IMG/VR virus record: IMGVR_UViG_3300009182_000050
Span: 8,172 to 72,171 of that record
Strand: one strand, 5' to 3'
DNA from: a virus
DNA: 64,000 nt
The position numbers and the translations under genes were made by a program. The notes under the pieces were generated by a model. That model made no database searches, had not been told where the DNA came from, and worked only from the letters and a program-made list of their open reading frames with translations. The number at the start of each line of letters is the position of its first letter. Position 1 is the stretch's first letter. Shown here one piece after another: positions 4,690 to 42,976 of this stretch.

Positions 4690-6534
4690 ATGACAAAAAT
4701 GACAGAACGACAGACACATGATTTATCAGAAGTAAAACTACATTTAGTTGATTCTGTAGAAAAAGCAAGTGAGTTTTTGACTTGGCTAAGCCAGAGACGA
4801 CCTTATGGTGCTGTTTCCGTTGATATTGAAACTGGTGAACTTCCCGGCGGAGAACGTAATGACGCACTATCTCCTTGGCACGGACAGATTCGCTTGGCTC
4901 AAATTGGTGATGGTGAGCAGGGTTGGTCTATTCCTTGGGAAGATTGGTCTGGTGTTTTTTATCAGGCTATGGATAAATTTTCTGGTCCTATTGTGTGCCA
5001 CAATATTGCTTTTGAAGCAAAATGGTTTGCTGTTAAATCTAAGTGGCAACTACCTTGGCATCAAGCTCACGACACAATGATTATGGCTCAGATTATTGAC
5101 CCACTTGGTTCAGGTGCTCTTAAGCGGTTAGCCTCTAGATATATTGACCCTCGTGCTGTGGCACTTCAAGAAACTTTAGGTACATCTCTGGCTATTAATG
5201 GATGGACTTGGGGGACTGTTCCTACAAACTTTGAACCTTACTGGTCATACGGTGCTCTTGATACTGTTCTTACAATGCGTATCTGGGAGCAGTTTTATGG
5301 ACAATGTGGTCCAGAGGGTTCATACAATCGTGCTTACGAAATTGAGATGGCTGCTAGAAAGATTGTCACTCGTATGGAAATCAATGGTGCTCGTGTAGAC
5401 CTTGACTACTCTCGTCGCAAATACGATGAACTAGTAAACTACACAGAGTCAGTAAAAGAGTGGGCTAAGGGTGCTTATGGTGGAGCATCTATTACTAGTA
5501 ATGTTCAACTAGTCAGACTCTTTGAGTCTTTAGGTGCAGAGATTACCGAGTTCACGCCTACAGGACAAAAATCTGCAACTAAAGACCAATTAAAACTTCT
5601 TACTATTACAGGTAATGATGAAGTAAAAAATCTTGCTGAAGTAGTTTTGAAACAGCGTAAAGCTGACAAACTTGCTAGTAGTTATTTCTCAAACTTTATT
5701 AGTAAAAATGTAAATGGTTTTGTTCATCCATCTGTTAAAACAATGGGTGCTCGTACCGGTCGTATGTCAATTACTGACCCAGCGTTGCAGACTCTTCCAA
5801 AGGGTGATGATGTAGTTCGTACTGCGTTCTTACCTAAAGATGATGACCATGTAATTATTACTTCTGACCTTGACCAAGTTGAGTTCCGTATGTTTGCTTC
5901 GTTGTCTCAGGACCCAAACTTGATTCAACTATTCCATCGTGCTGATGCAACTGGCTCTGACCCATTTACTGAAATTGGCCGTGAGGTTTATCAAGAACCT
6001 GAAATGACTAGGTCTGATAAACGACGTAATCTTATTAAGGGCGTTGTTTACGGTCGTCTTTACGGTGCTGGTGTAGCAAAGCAAGCCCTCACTGCTGGTG
6101 TTCCTGAGTCTCAGATGCGTGCAGTTTCCGATTCGTTTGACCGTAACTATCCAGGAATGATTTCTTTTCAAAAGAAAATTGAAGATATTGGTATGCGTCG
6201 TCTTCGTGGTGAAGGTCAGGGCTATGTACACACTTGGACTGGTCGTCGTCTTCCTTGTGATGATGACCGTACTTATACGCTCGTTAACTATTTAATTCAG
6301 GGTGGTGCTGCTGAGGTATTTAAGTCAAACTTAATCAAACTTGACCAAGCAGACCTAACTGAGCTTTTGATTGTGCCTGTGCACGATGAAATTGTTCTTA
6401 ACTGTCCTCGTGACCAAGTTGCAGAAGTTATGAAGACTGTTCAGGAATGTATGACAACAACCGAAGGATGGTCAGTGCCTCTTACATCAGGTATTGATGG
6501 TCCACTAGAGACTTGGGGAGATAAATACCGCTAA
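4690..6534 (+). CDS. polA: DNA polymerase family A with 3'-5' exonuclease
   Basis: Exo DIET, CHNIAFE, HDTM; RTGRMS, DLDQVEFR (motif A), KGVVYGRLYG (motif B), VHDEIV (motif C). Confidence 0.95.
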   Translation: MTKMTERQTHDLSEVKLHLVDSVEKASEFLTWLSQRRPYGAVSVDIETGELPGGERNDALSPWHGQIRLAQIGDGEQGWSIPWEDWSGVFYQAMDKFSGPIVCHNIAFEAKWFAVKSKWQLPWHQAHDTMIMAQIIDPLGSGALKRLASRYIDPRAVALQETLGTSLAINGWTWGTVPTNFEPYWSYGALDTVLTMRIWEQFYGQCGPEGSYNRAYEIEMAARKIVTRMEINGARVDLDYSRRKYDELVNYTESVKEWAKGAYGGASITSNVQLVRLFESLGAEITEFTPTGQKSATKDQLKLLTITGNDEVKNLAEVVLKQRKADKLASSYFSNFISKNVNGFVHPSVKTMGARTGRMSITDPALQTLPKGDDVVRTAFLPKDDDHVIITSDLDQVEFRMFASLSQDPNLIQLFHRADATGSDPFTEIGREVYQEPEMTRSDKRRNLIKGVVYGRLYGAGVAKQALTAGVPESQMRAVSDSFDRNYPGMISFQKKIEDIGMRRLRGEGQGYVHTWTGRRLPCDDDRTYTLVNYLIQGGAAEVFKSNLIKLDQADLTELLIVPVHDEIVLNCPRDQVAEVMKTVQECMTTTEGWSVPLTSGIDGPLETWGDKYR

Positions 6535-13270: not shown

Positions 13271-13570
13271 TTGAGCAATGGACTACAAGAGCCTTGGACA
13301 TTTGAGCAACCTGTTTGTAGAGAAGTTGGTGGTGAAGCATTTTATGCTGGTGATGAAGATGACCCTCAATCACTAGACACTAATATCTTAAATAATCAAC
13401 TAGCCAAAAAAATATGTCAGACATGTAGTCATATTGTTGAGTGTGCTGAGTGGGGTATTCATCACGAAAGATACGGTATATGGGGTGGATTATCGCCTCA
13501 CGAAATTGTTACTATAAGAAGAAAAAGAAACATAATTATGAAAACCGTAACTCTTCCTAGAGTCCTGTAG
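13271..13570 (+). CDS. whiB: WhiB-family transcription factor
   Basis: C...AKKICQTCSHIVECAEWG...GIWGGLS; four Cys. Confidence 0.9.
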   Translation: MSNGLQEPWTFEQPVCREVGGEAFYAGDEDDPQSLDTNILNNQLAKKICQTCSHIVECAEWGIHHERYGIWGGLSPHEIVTIRRKRNIIMKTVTLPRVL

Positions 13571-13606
13571 AATCTAAATAACATTTAACATACAGGAGGT
13601 CTAGAA

Positions 13607-13918
13607 ATGGCCGCAAAAGAAGTTGCTAGACCTATGCCTGTCTGTGAAAACTGCTTTCTTGAAGAACATACTAAATGGGAGCCAGATAGTATGGATGAAG
13701 AAGGTAATGTTTTAATGAGGCTTACTGGTGTTGATACACCTCTAAGAGCAACCCCTGAATCAGTTGAAACTTGCTCATTATGCGGTGCAATAACTGTAGC
13801 TGGAATTTATGAAATGTTTAAGCCATCAGAAATATATTTTGATGAGAATTCTCAATTAGAAAATAAATTTGAAATGCCTCTAAATGAATTTTATGGTGAC
13901 TCTGATGAAGGATTCTAG
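13607..13918 (+). CDS. Hypothetical zinc-binding protein
   Basis: AGGAGG RBS; CENC and CSLC motifs. Confidence 0.6.
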   Translation: MAAKEVARPMPVCENCFLEEHTKWEPDSMDEEGNVLMRLTGVDTPLRATPESVETCSLCGAITVAGIYEMFKPSEIYFDENSQLENKFEMPLNEFYGDSDEGF

Positions 13919-14240
13919 AGTTGGTGAATCCCTATGGAACGAATGGGATGGAGATGGCTATACTAATACACTTGTTTCTGGAACAGTTTTCTACACTATT
14001 GAACATATTTCAATTGAGAATGAGTTAGTTCGTAGAGCTCTTGCCTCTAATCTACAAAGAGATGGGGTAGCAGATTCTCTTGGAGATGGTTTTAGAATCC
14101 TTGAAAATGCTGTAATTAGTCAAGGTTGGGCTGGTTATGTTGATTCAGATAATGAGATATCTTCTTGTAGTGAAGTTGGACTTACTGAGTATGGTGACAT
14201 TGTTGACCAAGTTTTTCCAGTAACTTGGGTTGAATTTTAG
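13884..14240 (+). CDS. Hypothetical acidic protein
   Basis: ORF in operon; likely start at MKDSR. Confidence 0.55.
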   Translation: MNFMVTLMKDSRVGESLWNEWDGDGYTNTLVSGTVFYTIEHISIENELVRRALASNLQRDGVADSLGDGFRILENAVISQGWAGYVDSDNEISSCSEVGLTEYGDIVDQVFPVTWVEF

Positions 14241-14300
14241 AAATAATATAGGTGTGTTTTTCACCCTATTTTTATACATCTTTCCTGTAGAATTTATATT

Positions 14301-14792
14301 ATGTGGAAACCTGCTGATAATTTAAGATGGCAAAAGGATGCTAAATGCGCCGACCCATCTAATAAAAAATCACTTGTATGGTTTTACTCTAAAGATTCTG
14401 TAGAAAAAAATAATGCAAAAAATATGTGCTTCTCTTGTCCTGTCCGTAAAACCTGTCTACAGTGGGCTCTAGAGCACAGAGAGATTTGGGGTATCTGGGG
14501 AGGCAAAGATGAGATTGAACTTCGTAGGGCTTTGTCTGTGGCTTACAATGGTGAAGAAACTCGTCGTAATCGTCCACCAAACTGCCCATACTGCACTGCT
14601 CGTCCTAGCAAGTTAGCAACTTCAATTGAAAAACTTCCGCCCGGTGGACGCTGGACTCGTGCAAAAGTAGTTACTTGTACAGAGTGTGGATTTGCTTGGC
14701 GTAGTCGCTCAAGTGCAAATGCTGTTGAAGCATATAAAGAAGAAAAAGAAAAACGAAAAAGACTTAAGAAGTCAGCTACTAAGGCTGAATAA
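14301..14792 (+). CDS. whiB: WhiB-family protein with C-terminal zinc ribbon
   Basis: WQKDAKC...AKNMCFSCPVRKTCLQWAL...GIWGG followed by CPYC...CTECG. Confidence 0.88.
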   Translation: MWKPADNLRWQKDAKCADPSNKKSLVWFYSKDSVEKNNAKNMCFSCPVRKTCLQWALEHREIWGIWGGKDEIELRRALSVAYNGEETRRNRPPNCPYCTARPSKLATSIEKLPPGGRWTRAKVVTCTECGFAWRSRSSANAVEAYKEEKEKRKRLKKSATKAE

Positions 14793-22411: not shown

Positions 22412-22624
22412 TTATTCGTTATTGTCTTTAGAATCTTCTTTTTCTAATGGCTCACGAAGGCGTAGCGTGATAAGCCATAAAACTAGAGAAAAGAGGATTG
22501 CATAACCCACAATAACTCTGGCTGAACCGTCAAGCACGCACCAAGCAACAAACATACCTAAAAGTGTCCATGTCTGGTTTAGTGACTCAACGATGATATC
22601 TTTAATCCAACGAAGTAGTCTCAT
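22412..22624 (-). CDS. Small two-TM membrane protein
   Basis: Two hydrophobic helices; coupled to the upstream large surface protein. Confidence 0.65.
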   Translation of the reverse strand: MRLLRWIKDIIVESLNQTWTLLGMFVAWCVLDGSARVIVGYAILFSLVLWLITLRLREPLEKEDSKDNNE

Positions 22625-25089
22625 TATATTTTCCTTGTCAATAGTGATGCAGTTCCAGCAATAACCTGAGTTACAATTACAGCTGGAATTGCTGCTTGTT
22701 GTGCTTTCTTGCGTGTTTCTGGTGTCATATCTGCACCAACATTTGCGATAGCAGTAAGTGCTTTACCTGGGTTGGTAAATACTGCTGACAAAATCTCGGA
22801 AGGGGCTTCAAAAATTTGTAGAGCGTCAGCAACATTAGCTGTCAAAACTACGCCATTTTCCAAAGTAATTGGTTGCTCTGGTGGCAAGTCTGAGTAATCC
22901 AAGCCGGACTCTGCAAAGACATCAGCAGGAATTGCTGTATCTGCATAAGCCGTAACAAGAACATCAGAAACTAATTGTTTTTCTTCCTCGGATAACTGAC
23001 CATCTGCTTGCAAGTTATCAACAAGATTTGTTACTTCTTCTTGACTAAGATTTCCATCAGATAATAAATTACTAACAATTGCTTGAGTCTCTGCTTGAGT
23101 TATAACTCCATCAGATGATGCATTGTCTACAAGAACTTGTTGCTCTTGCTGAGAAGAGATAGTAGGCTCAACTGTAGGTTCAACATTAGGAGTTGGTTCA
23201 GGTGAAGAAGTTACTACGGGCTTTGGGGACGGTTCTGATGATGGGGTTTTGGATGGTTTTGGTTCAGGCTCTTTTGTTGGGGTCACTATGGGCGGTTCTG
23301 TTGGTTCTGACGTCGGTGTGGGAGTAGGTTCAACAGTTGGTTCTACAGTAGGTTCAGGTGTTGGTTCAACAGTTGGAGTTGGTTCAACAGTTGGCTCTAC
23401 AGTTGGAGTTGGCTCAATAGTTGGGCTAGGTTCTACAGTTGGGGTTGGGGTTGGCTCTGGTGTTGGTTCAACAGTTGGTTCTGGAGTTGGAGTTGGAGTT
23501 GGAGTTGGAGTTGGAGTAGGAGTAGGTTCAACTACAATACCTAAATCACAAATAGAATCTCCAGAAACTCTTTGACAAGAATTAGTTCCTGGGCCACCAT
23601 AAAATAAACCATTCTCATCTATGACAAGATTAGTGTCGTCTCCTTCACCACCATAAAATGCTGAGTGCCACTGTTGAACAACAATGTCATTCCCAGCACC
23701 ACCAAAAAAGTAATCTCTAGTTTGTGCATCAGAATCTAAAGAATAAACAGTATTATTTTCAGAGTTACCACAAAAAATATCTGGACTATTGCCATAGTTA
23801 TTACCAAATTCTCTAGAACCTTCAGCCAAATTTATATGCCAGTATCCTGAGTAAACTCCTGCTAATAATTGTTCTCTAGTAATTCCTATGATTGAAAGTA
23901 TTGAATCTGCAGTAAAACTTGGGTCATCAATGTTTGCTGCACATTGGTCAATTGTTGGAGGCTCTGCTGGACATTGCTGATTCCACTCAACATATGAACT
24001 ATCCCAACAATGAACAGGTGGTGGAATTACTGGACAAACACCATTCCACGGAACTACATCATTATTCCAACAAATAATATCGGGTGGAGTTGGAGCACAC
24101 TCTGATTGATAGTGAACTACGGAGTCGTCCCAGCAAACTACTTGAGGCTCTATAGGACAAGTATCATTCCAAGCAATAGAAGCACCATTCCAGCATTGAA
24201 TAGGTGGTGGTTCTGGTAAGCAAGTACCATTCCAAGAAACAGTAGAACCGTTCCAACATTGAACATCAGGAGGAGTTGGTGGACAAGTTTGATTGTAAGG
24301 AATTGTAGAGCCATCCCAGCATTGAATTGGCTGAGGAATTACTGGACAAGTTTGACTCCAAGTTACCCAAGAACCGTCCCAGCACTGTGTGTCTGGTGGA
24401 ACTGGTGGGCAGGTCTGATTCCACGCGACTGTTGAGCCATCCCAACATTGACCTGCTGGAGGTTCTGCAGGACAGGTTGAAGTAAGAGGAATTACAGAAC
24501 CATCCCAACAAGATTGCATTTCAATTGGTCGGCCACCATTAACAGTAAATGCCTCAGAGATGGTAACTACATCTTGCCCAGAAATAAATCTAATACCTCT
24601 ACGAAGACTACTTGGAAGCCATCCTGTTGTTTCAATAGTTCCTGACCAAGCTGGTAAACGAGAAGTATCAACAGTCAATGTAATTTTTGTAAAATCACCA
24701 TTGTTTTGTGGGTATGGACGAACCATCCACTCTACACAAAAACCTGTTTCAGTTGCTCCATAACTCAGGTAACCACCAGACCAAGTAACCCAATCCCATC
24801 CGGCTAAAGAGATAGAAGGAGTATTTGGATAACTACTAAATGTTGCATCAGGTGAACCAAATGTGAGCGTTCCATTTGTAGTTGCGTAGACAGTATCGTA
24901 AGAAGTGTCACCAAGATTTATATTTGTAGGAAGAAATATTTGATGTGCAACATCATCTTCGCCTGTCCAAGAAACTTGGTTGCAAGGCTGAGGGGCTACC
25001 GCATTTGCAGGACTCTGAAATGCTAATGGTAAAACTACCAATAATGCTAAATATGTATAAGCGGTTAAGGCTCTAATAAACTTAGACAA
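22624..25089 (-). CDS. Large secreted/membrane-anchored protein with CW(D/N) repeats, GGxGxD motifs and PT/PE linker
   Basis: Signal-like N-terminus, nine CW(D/N)xx...C-x-x-x-P repeats, GGAGND/GGEGDD motifs, long PTPEPT linker, hydrophobic C-terminus. Confidence 0.8.
23160..23535 (-). repeat. Pro/Thr/Glu linker tandem repeats (coding)
   Basis: (ggagtt)n and ggttcaacagtt repeats encoding [12 protein letters not shown]. Confidence 0.8.
23957..24518 (-). repeat. Nine ~21-aa cysteine repeats (coding)
   Basis: e.g. [57 protein letters not shown]. Confidence 0.8.
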
Positions 25090-42022: not shown

Positions 42023-42262
42023 ATGACACATTCACAGAACGACCCAGACACAACCGCAAACTATCTAGGCTTGATGCTGATGATGGGATTCCCAGCAACT
42101 TCGCTGCAGAAGTTCGGGAATGAAATTGAGATTCCAGATGGTGCTATTGAAGACCGGCTTCTGGAAATTGCAAAGCTTCGGAACAACCTTCCAGAAGTTG
42201 TTGACCCTGATACCGGACTCAATGCTGAAGTCATTGATTTGTTCACAAAGCGTCCGATTTGA
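42023..42262 (+). CDS. Hypothetical protein
   Basis: ATG at 42023 after a promoter-like sequence. Confidence 0.5.
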   Translation: MTHSQNDPDTTANYLGLMLMMGFPATSLQKFGNEIEIPDGAIEDRLLEIAKLRNNLPEVVDPDTGLNAEVIDLFTKRPI

Positions 42263-42319
42263 CACGAGGCCTGAAAGGGCGTAAACTCCATCATAGATTC
42301 ATTACGAAGGGAGAATCAC

Positions 42320-42472
42320 ATGCGTAATTGCGACATTTGCAAAGACCGCGAATCAAAGTACGATGCTCGTACGATTTGGGGTCCTTGGGCTTATGTGTGC
42401 GAGAACTGCTTCAAGCAGTACACACATAACAAAGTTGAACTCGGTTTTGCTACCAAGTTGACAGCGGCGTAA
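42320..42472 (+). CDS. Short zinc-binding hypothetical protein
   Basis: GAAGGGAGA RBS; CDIC...YDART..GPWAYVCENC. Confidence 0.65.
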   Translation: MRNCDICKDRESKYDARTIWGPWAYVCENCFKQYTHNKVELGFATKLTAA

Positions 42473-42486
42473 GACCCGTGTATAAC
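42458..42486 (+). promoter_or_regulatory. Sigma70-type promoter
   Basis: TTGACA (42458) - 17 nt - TATAAC (42481). Confidence 0.7.
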
Positions 42487-42492
42487 TGAATA

Positions 42493-42730
42493 ACAACATT
42501 CTATCCCTAGATTATTTTGGACATTTAGGGCTAGATAACCGCACAGGCCTGAGGGTTTTGCCTTACTCCTCCCTCAGACTTTTGGGAGTGCGTTGTCCCG
42601 GCACTCGCGAACACGGGACACTTAAGTTTCCTAACTCAAAAGGTTAGGATTTCGCAAGCATCAAAGGAACGGTTCTGGAGATGCGAGGCTTGGTGGGTTG
42701 CTCCGCCACCTGCGAACACGGAGCATTTCA
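42493..42730 (+). ncRNA. Candidate structured RNA / long leader with two H-type pseudoknots
   Basis: Multiple hairpins plus pseudoknots at 42586-42620 and 42692-42725 with shared loops and compensated stems. Confidence 0.55.
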
Positions 42731-42754
42731 AACTACAGAAGGAAAAAAACTACA

Positions 42755-42976
42755 GTGACAAAACAACTGACCGGCATGCCGTGGCTTCGCCAGCGCATGA
42801 CCACACTGAAATACACATCACTAGAGCAAGTAGCTGTTGACATGGGAATCAACCGTGGCAACCTGTACCGGTACTTCGCGTTAGAGACGCGGCCAAGTAT
42901 CGCGATGCTTCCGGTGATGACAGAAGTTCTCGGCGTGAAGACGGACGAGATGCTACGCGTACTGGAAGTCAAGTAA
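42755..42976 (+). CDS. XRE-type HTH protein
   Basis: SLEQVAVDMGINRGNLYRYF...RPS; GTG start after GAAGGA. Confidence 0.75.
   Translation: MTKQLTGMPWLRQRMTTLKYTSLEQVAVDMGINRGNLYRYFALETRPSIAMLPVMTEVLGVKTDEMLRVLEVK

Follow-up and report, generated by a model that had tools for sequence, protein, structure and literature searches.

As outlined in PMC8374639, the exoribonuclease-resistant RNAs (xrRNAs) of flaviviruses are built on a three-way junction that, together with the 5' end, forms a pseudoknot termed PK1 there, and a second pseudoknot acts as a latch. They often occur in series and block bacterial RNase J1 (PMC8374639). Among phages, the autoregulation of T4 gene 32 is cited in PMC10690425. 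The cluster K mycobacteriophages, as presented in PMC3203893, carry conserved motifs whose function is not known just upstream of the starts of unrelated genes: SAS is a 13-bp motif that overlaps the ribosome-binding site and occurs 11–19 times per genome, and ESAS is a 17-bp inverted repeat (PMC3203893). In addition, the DNAVirus_N catalogue of Fremin et al. (2023), compiled from IMG/VR, holds 8495 unnamed candidates, and for 879 of these the distance to a start codon is no more than 25 nt (PMC10690425).

Here we describe a pseudoknot fold of ~80 bases that recurs, usually once per genome, in more than 100 uncultured freshwater actinophages. It comes from the same data source as the DNAVirus_N catalogue; the main text of that paper, in the sections covered, names no such motif, pseudoknot topology or actinophage link (PMC10690425). 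No description of the motif was found in the literature searched, to which the supplements of PMC10690425 did not belong, and these supplements may contain a hairpin-level model of the unit. SAS and ESAS (PMC3203893) are the nearest actinophage precedent in concept but are different in form, there being here one knotted 80-nt fold per genome.

The fold was identified in a 64,000-nt stretch of phage DNA (the window) that belongs to an IMG/VR record of a 72 kb virus and encodes a DNA polymerase, helicase, primase, ribonucleotide reductase and terminase. A sequence-only reading had pointed to two H-type pseudoknots between a near-consensus promoter and the gene of an HTH regulator, and both pseudoknots are present on the plus strand exactly as it gave them. 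The features of the locus are as follows.

42459–42487, plus strand: sigma-70-like promoter candidate TTGACA-17-TATAAC, from sequence reading, kept in five relatives
42500–42535, plus strand: hairpin H0, on the 5' side and outside the conserved core, from the MFE fold
42540–42543, plus strand: box CGCA of unit 1, its CGC being the 5' strand of helix P0, which covaries with loop 3
42545–42581, plus strand: hairpin H1 of unit 1 with a C/U-rich loop, from the fold and a compensatory change in locus L042
42586–42620, plus strand: H-type pseudoknot of unit 1 (PK1), 56.4 bits with covariance model R1; P1 is GAGTGC 42586–42591 with GCACTC 42601–42606, L1 is GT 42592–42593, P2 is TGTCCCG 42594–42600 with CGGGACA 42614–42620, and L3 is GCGAACA 42607–42613, of which 42607–42609 pair with the box
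42630–42648, plus strand: inter-unit hairpin CCTAAC/GTTAGG, identical in L042
42653–42656, plus strand: box CGCA of unit 2; TCGCA at 42652–42656 is complementary to TGCGA at 42711–42715
42658–42684, plus strand: hairpin H1' of unit 2, from the fold
42691–42725, plus strand: H-type pseudoknot of unit 2, 54.2 bits with model R1 (PK2 itself 42692–42725); P1 is GGTGG 42692–42696 with CCACC 42706–42710, L1 is GT 42697–42698, P2 is TGCTCCG 42699–42705 with CGGAGCA 42719–42725, and a T at 42711 precedes L3, GCGAACA 42712–42718
42726–42754, plus strand: G-poor spacer with a Shine-Dalgarno-like AAGGA at 42738–42742, from the sequence
42755–42976, plus strand: downstream gene with GTG start, a 73-aa HTH_3 regulator (Pfam HTH_3, E=1.6e-5)

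Apart from the pseudoknots, the hairpin with a C/U-rich loop at 42545–42581, the lack of a credible ORF in the 282 nt that separate the stop at 42472 from the GTG at 42755, and the HTH regulator downstream were all borne out. The promoter agrees with the consensus in 11 of 12 letters but misses the final T of the −10 box, which is why it was not listed by the promoter scanner; TTGACA and a TATA-like box are kept at the same relative place in L042, L007, L035, L064 and L071. The region delimited by the sequence-only reading covers both units, but the CGCA box and its pairing with loop 3 had been missed. The two pseudoknots form a 36-nt direct repeat of 75% identity with 105 nt between the copies; the internal covariation claimed for them holds, as their loops are identical and their stem differences compensatory. 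The whole region folds with a z-score of −2.84 against shuffles. At the position of H0, other family members have different hairpins or none. In L042, the closest relative, H1 of unit 1 differs by a compensatory G>A and C>T pair. Natural variants occur in other samples at 42670, 42671, 42684 and 42685, in the region of H1', and the C>T change at 42684 matches a GATGC-to-GATGT difference in L042 and is read as a G-C pair turned into G·U. The locus was present in four DNA runs with 0–5 differences, none within either pseudoknot, and with no joints, which adds little; no RNA run is among the 21 runs listed as containing it. The N-terminus of the HTH_3 regulator resembles that of an orthologue in L004/L064, which itself stands behind a unit of the same kind (class 1). 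Just upstream, at 42320–42472, is a 50-aa zinc-ribbon-like ORF (CxxC...CxxC; Pfam matches weak and sub-threshold) with its own promoter match, TTGACA-17-TAAACT, at 42259–42287.

We scanned IMG/VR with a pattern in which the loops and five P2 pairs were fixed while P1 and two P2 pairs were left free, which returned 96 viral stretches. Both copies are present in only one relative among them, the near-identical L042. The 32 distinct 37-mers of this set pair in 98.3% of pair cells, with 6 of 13 pairs changed on both sides. To avoid the bias of the pattern, 160 loci were fetched by way of the two downstream proteins found most often, those of families A and B; these loci yielded relaxed variants, and covariation was counted on the combined set of 51 distinct 37-mers. 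Pairing is kept in 96.8% of pair cells, as against a shuffle mean of 82.2% that none of 500 shuffles raised to this level, and partners slid out of register pair in 33–46% of cells. Compensatory changes were found in 7 of 13 pairs, including G-C to A-U at P2 pair 12-36. As G·U pairs occur at columns 7-19 in 10 of the 51 sequences and U·G pairs occur in P2, only an RNA of the plus (gene) strand fits. Covariance model R1, built on the 51 sequences, matches 50 of the 80 loci of family A and 15 of the 80 of family B; all 65 matches among the 160 gene-anchored loci score at least 45 bits with no intermediate scores, and all are on the plus strand, in sense with the genes. These data confirm that both pseudoknots are real and above chance.

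The family had not been recognised from the sequence, and Rfam agrees: neither the window (Rfam 15) nor seven related loci gave a match at the gathering score. With E raised to 10, the sole match in 42300–42900 was RAGATH-28 (E=6.9, minus strand), and no Rfam model of preQ1, SAM-II, fluoride, guanidine-III or other riboswitches, or of ribozymes, matched. Searches of GenBank phages by blastn with the window region and the L311 unit, and by tblastn with the family A and B proteins, gave no match, so no cultured relative was found. A relaxed pattern run on 185,579 prokaryote species genomes returned 21 matches, the best at 28 bits with R1 compared with at least 45 bits for true members; they were rejected as chance, the five inspected being GC-rich and lacking box and hairpin by eye.

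The conserved unit extends beyond the pseudoknot. Of the distinct leaders, 104 extend far enough upstream to be judged; CGCA immediately precedes hairpin H1 in 102 of them and is present anywhere upstream in 103 when L206 is counted, whose nearest CGCA is far upstream in coding sequence; we estimate the chance expectation for CGCA in that span at about one leader in six. H1 itself is entirely variable in sequence and length and is joined to P1 by a linker of 4–9 nt. The CGC of the box can pair with GCG, the three bases that open loop 3, and the resulting 3-bp helix, P0, covaries as CGC:GCG, CAC:GUG and GCG:CGC. Thus, a CACA box goes with loop GTG in L154/L299, L203, L206/L210 and L300, a GCGT box with loop ACGC in L142/L309 and L304/L306, and a GCG box with loop CGC in the distant, GC-rich L311. 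Two relaxed box/loop scans gave 16 loci, in which P1 pairs at 6/6 positions in five, at 5/6 in three and at three or fewer in eight, the last being taken as chance. P0, H1, P1 and P2 are all supported by covariation, and units 1 and 2 of the window both carry the full set of box, H1 and pseudoknot. Read from the alignment, the topology shown is a predicted three-way junction (P0, H1 and P1) with P2 as a loop-to-tail pseudoknot. An A-rich linker, AACA, lies between P0 and P2; as only these four bases remain after P0, the two helices may need a sharp turn or may alternate. The loop of H1 is in many cases rich in pyrimidines (CTCCT or TCCTT) and shows complementarity, over up to 8 bases in the L007 group, to the Shine-Dalgarno sequence of the gene that follows, a property that is missing in family B leaders and in unit 2 of the window.

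The position of the unit relative to genes was examined in 118 distinct leaders, 92 of which have a Shine-Dalgarno site and start codon within 45 nt. The pseudoknot ends 20–24 nt before the start codon in 79 of these 92, and ~96 of the 117 real distinct leaders place the unit 20–37 nt before it. The spacer consists of 55% A, 32% C, 6.5% G and 6.8% T, compared with 30/21/22/27% overall. The 20–24 nt spacing partly reflects the shared ancestry of family A and B leaders, and it would fit a role in translation equally well. The remaining 26 leaders comprise 4 of family A with a GAGAGA-type site missed by the pattern, ~10 that precede an exonuclease gene after two more hairpins, 5 followed by a simpler pseudoknot in the same leader, 2 with the tandem pair (window and L042), 3 that run directly into an intrinsic terminator, 1 other and 1 false match (L310). 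The downstream genes are unrelated and encode two 140-aa families without assigned function, a PD-(D/E)XK exonuclease, HTH_3, DUF932 and MarR-like proteins. The upstream context also varies and includes a promoter-like site with a hairpin (window group and L009 group) and another structured element.

Fixed spacing to the start codon is also what a cis-regulatory sensor would show, i.e. a riboswitch aptamer or protein operator that controls translation of the next gene, for instance through a fold that competes with pairing between the H1 loop and the ribosome-binding site. The combination of three-way junction and pseudoknot, with loop bases that do not vary, is one typical of aptamers, the H1 loop of the L007 group can pair with 8 bases of the downstream Shine-Dalgarno region, and P0 and P2 might be mutually exclusive states. 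A pseudoknot followed by unstructured RNA further recalls the operator of T4 gene 32: in the T4/T2 gene 32 leader, as here, an H-type phage pseudoknot is followed by unstructured RNA and then by the ribosome-binding site, and the stem and loop sizes of the two pseudoknots are similar. The T4 operator, however, precedes the gene of a single-strand-binding protein, whereas the genes behind our unit vary, and no SSB was identified among them with Pfam and PHROGs; the unit also adds the helix between box and loop 3, H1, an A/C-rich spacer and copies adjoining tRNAs and terminators. We regard a sensor as unlikely, in that the downstream genes are unrelated and mostly without assigned function, families A and B, which hold most copies, show neither a terminator nor conserved sequestering of the ribosome-binding site, and copies in front of a tRNA or terminators have nothing to regulate. 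Moreover, no co-occurring phage protein was found, and no Rfam riboswitch model matched even at E up to 10. The tandem aptamer suggested by the sequence-only reading is unsupported: no expression platform is visible in the family A and B leaders, H1-loop complementarity to the Shine-Dalgarno site being confined to some groups, the downstream genes are unrelated, and 7/7 carrier genomes of 40 kb have a single copy.

The terminator-adjoining members (three distinct, in five contigs) take a different form. At L009:1560–1850, L058 and L098 (also L025 and L032), a promoter-like TTGACA...TATAAT, hairpin H0, the CGCA box, H1, the pseudoknot and an intrinsic terminator follow in this order, and the gene behind is convergent and read as NlpC/P60 peptidase-like. 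A divergent class-1 unit is found at L311:6075–6236, on a GC-rich viral contig of 97 kb, at the edge of an array in which 24 tRNA genes are packed into 6.3 kb; it has box GCG and loop 3 CGCAACA, gets no R1 score, and its pseudoknot ends at 6160, with tRNA-Pro starting at 6162.

These loci bring in a stand-alone RNA that would work in trans, as a decoy or a regulator, by binding a conserved host macromolecule (for instance RNA polymerase, the ribosome, a defence protein or an RNase), the leader copies being merely co-transcribed or cut out later. The run from promoter-like site through terminator with a convergent gene behind, at L009, L058 and L098, is what such an RNA would have, and between L009 and L058 the stems have changed in a compensatory way. 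A single base separates the pseudoknot from tRNA-Pro in L311, and RNase P would therefore release the unit. The high conservation of the loops, for which no phage protein partner was found, and the frequent pyrimidine-richness and Shine-Dalgarno complementarity of the H1 loops are in line with this explanation too. We still find it doubtful: a place 20–37 nt before the start codon in ~96 of 117 leaders is unneeded for action in trans, and neither the family B leaders nor unit 2 of the window have a pyrimidine-rich H1 loop. The same motif was not found in host RNA in the search of 185,579 species genomes, which makes mimicry of a host RNA unlikely.

A new small self-cleaving ribozyme that cuts polycistronic early transcripts would likewise account for the tRNA-adjoining copy, as well as for tandem copies and a scattered intergenic occurrence in phages without a fixed gene partner, a distribution that resembles the one reported for twister, pistol and hatchet. 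Size, pseudoknots and the few invariant junction bases fit as well. However, no Rfam ribozyme model matched, and by reading, the strand order of HDV-like and pistol folds does not map onto the unit. Given also the low prior, few new structured RNAs turning out to be catalytic, we judge self-cleavage quite unlikely.

The varied upstream context bears on a further explanation, namely a processive antiterminator RNA of the put type, by which the host RNA polymerase would be modified during transcription. Such an RNA needs no phage protein and is compatible with any gene downstream, and the unit is promoter-proximal in the window group and the L009 group. In G009 and G010, however, it begins inside an operon, only 4 nt behind the stop codon of the gene before it, and in G001 it is ~1 kb from the best promoter match, with no convincing terminator downstream on that strand. 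HK022 put consists of two plain stem-loops, and the unit differs from it in being intercistronic in G009 and G010 rather than promoter-proximal. An antiterminator is thus very unlikely in our view.

We next consider the carriers. WhiB (PF02467) was detected in 5/5 carrier records tested, including that of the window, and among 14 control genomes in Corynebacterium only; the carriers are therefore actinophages. The record of the window has two WhiB-family genes, at G000:C1:21475–21675 and 22499–22699 (about 13300–14530 of the window). The locus was found in freshwater metagenome runs of 14 studies. Among 10 complete 40 kb genomes, 7 have exactly one copy, 2 have the simpler pseudoknot only and 1 has neither, while the window has two copies. 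No ORF cluster was present in 7/7 carriers and 0/3 non-carriers, a comparison of low power with three non-carriers. All seven carriers share 36 clusters, of which just 2 include an ORF of the window, so the RNA moves between unrelated backbones, examples of which are the window, the 40 kb group and the L311 contig of 97 kb. The lack of a tracking ORF, together with these unrelated backbones, would suit an RNA that works by itself or through host machinery that is conserved. Both actinobacterial genomes tested contain RNase J family genes, above the family cut-off in one case; the true hosts, and with them their RNases, are ones that we infer. T7-like RNA polymerase (PF00940) was not detected in five complete genomes, which is uninformative as the control was also without signal. 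Within the window, G+C rises from ~0.36–0.43 (1–39000) to 0.46–0.51 (40000–64000) with a jump at about 39–40 kb, beyond which almost all genes are on the plus strand; the jump could be the boundary of a mosaic module or an assembly join.

Copy number also bears on mimicry of a type III antitoxin RNA that would neutralise a ToxN-like toxin of the host, another suggestion of the sequence-only reading. ToxI, CptI and TenpI are likewise pseudoknotted units of ~35 nt, matching the 35–37 nt of the unit and its two copies in the window, and phage mimics of type III antitoxin RNAs are known, with pseudo-ToxI as the precedent. The unit, however, has no head-to-tail array, no toxin gene and no host counterpart: the two copies are 105 nt apart with hairpins between them and only 75% identical, 7/7 carrier genomes have a single copy, and no matching repeat array or convincing counterpart was found in 185,579 species genomes. 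A ToxN/CptN/TenpN toxin gene was not found with Pfam among ten neighbouring ORFs, the next gene being HTH_3. Type III antitoxin mimicry is thus largely refuted, and we consider it extremely improbable. CsrA or Hfq binding, tRNA mimicry and CRISPR-repeat mimicry were set aside as poor fits, judged by eye.

Orthologous sites can have a simpler H-type pseudoknot (class 2) in place of the unit, or nothing at all. In class 2, a covarying P1 of 4–5 bp is followed by C-TGAGYA, the 3' strand of P1, a loop ending in AAAC, and TGCTCA. Related phages have 70 distinct copies of class 2 between their genes, with covarying P1, and Rfam gave no match for this pseudoknot. Examples are L106:1455–1483, L232 (three copies in 3.4 kb) and L255 (three copies), and the window has none; in L152, L157, L158, L162 and L077, class 2 stands behind class 1 in the same leader. 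A recurring element of ~75 nt, GGCATAGTGAACCAGCGTAAGG, a variable middle and GATGCAGGTAGTTTATGCC, with complementary ends, is located just 5' of class 1 or class 2 units, as at L260:11127–11200 (minus strand), L106:1400–1455 and many family A and B loci. A long hairpin in front of some family B genes, a supposed third class, was dropped as an RNA element because it is coding sequence, namely the conserved C-terminal portion of the transglycosylase-like gene upstream.

Nuclease-resistant RNA ends, the last of the suggestions made from the sequence, appear to be a viable reading, which is strengthened by the additional helix between box and loop 3 and its xrRNA-like topology. We tentatively propose that the unit is a cis-acting barrier and stabiliser for the downstream message that resembles exoribonuclease-resistant RNAs. 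This proposal draws on the covarying structure, the xrRNA-like topology, the sense orientation and the position before varied cistrons, as well as on the optional and interchangeable nature of the unit, the failure to find a phage partner, and actinobacterial hosts. Compared with the xrRNAs outlined in PMC8374639, the unit shares a three-way junction, pairing of a 5' strand with the junction and pairing of a hairpin loop with the 3' tail, here at the level of secondary structure alone, along with tandem occurrence, independence from protein and conserved tertiary bases. It differs in belonging to a DNA phage of bacteria and to 5' leaders, whereas xrRNAs lie in 3' UTRs, and it has neither the closing P1 helix of flavivirus xrRNAs nor a sequence or Rfam match to them.

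In the proposed mechanism, each unit of ~80 nt would be a self-contained fold transcribed with the early genes. Acting in cis where a cistron has its 5' edge, its knot-like fold would need no phage protein to form a mechanical barrier, stopping 5'-to-3' decay begun further upstream, whether by an RNase J-type exonuclease or by 5'-end-dependent attack. Just behind the fold, a short unstructured A/C-rich landing pad with the ribosome-binding site would be left, and the downstream early message would thereby be stabilised and insulated. The two tandem units of the window could serve as mutual backup. Against a barrier, the terminator-adjoining and tRNA-adjoining copies have nothing obvious to shield. 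The difficulty of forming P0 and P2 together, which could be alternative states, may also count against it.

A bolder form of the cis-acting barrier, which we hold to be rather doubtful, is that the unit would be the first exoribonuclease-resistant, knot-like RNA of a DNA phage, its three-way junction and double pseudoknot halting bacterial 5'-3' decay by RNase J at the heads of early cistrons, with the terminator-bound form as a stable decoy RNA, i.e. an analogue of xrRNA and sfRNA in the bacterial world.

In summary, the unit defines an RNA family without a catalogued Rfam counterpart that belongs among the structured leader RNAs of phages. Structured RNAs have hardly been explored in phages of the Actinobacteria that dominate fresh water, and this family offers strong covariation over four helices, one of them long-range, in a compact double-pseudoknot topology that spreads across unrelated phage backbones without a protein partner. 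Its size of ~80 nt permits direct biochemical and structural tests. If binding of a host factor or ligand, or self-cleavage, proves true, the unit would represent a new functional RNA class. If it does block nucleases, exonuclease resistance as a programmed feature would no longer be confined to eukaryotic RNA viruses but would reach bacteria as well, and the unit would provide a small, portable mRNA stabiliser.
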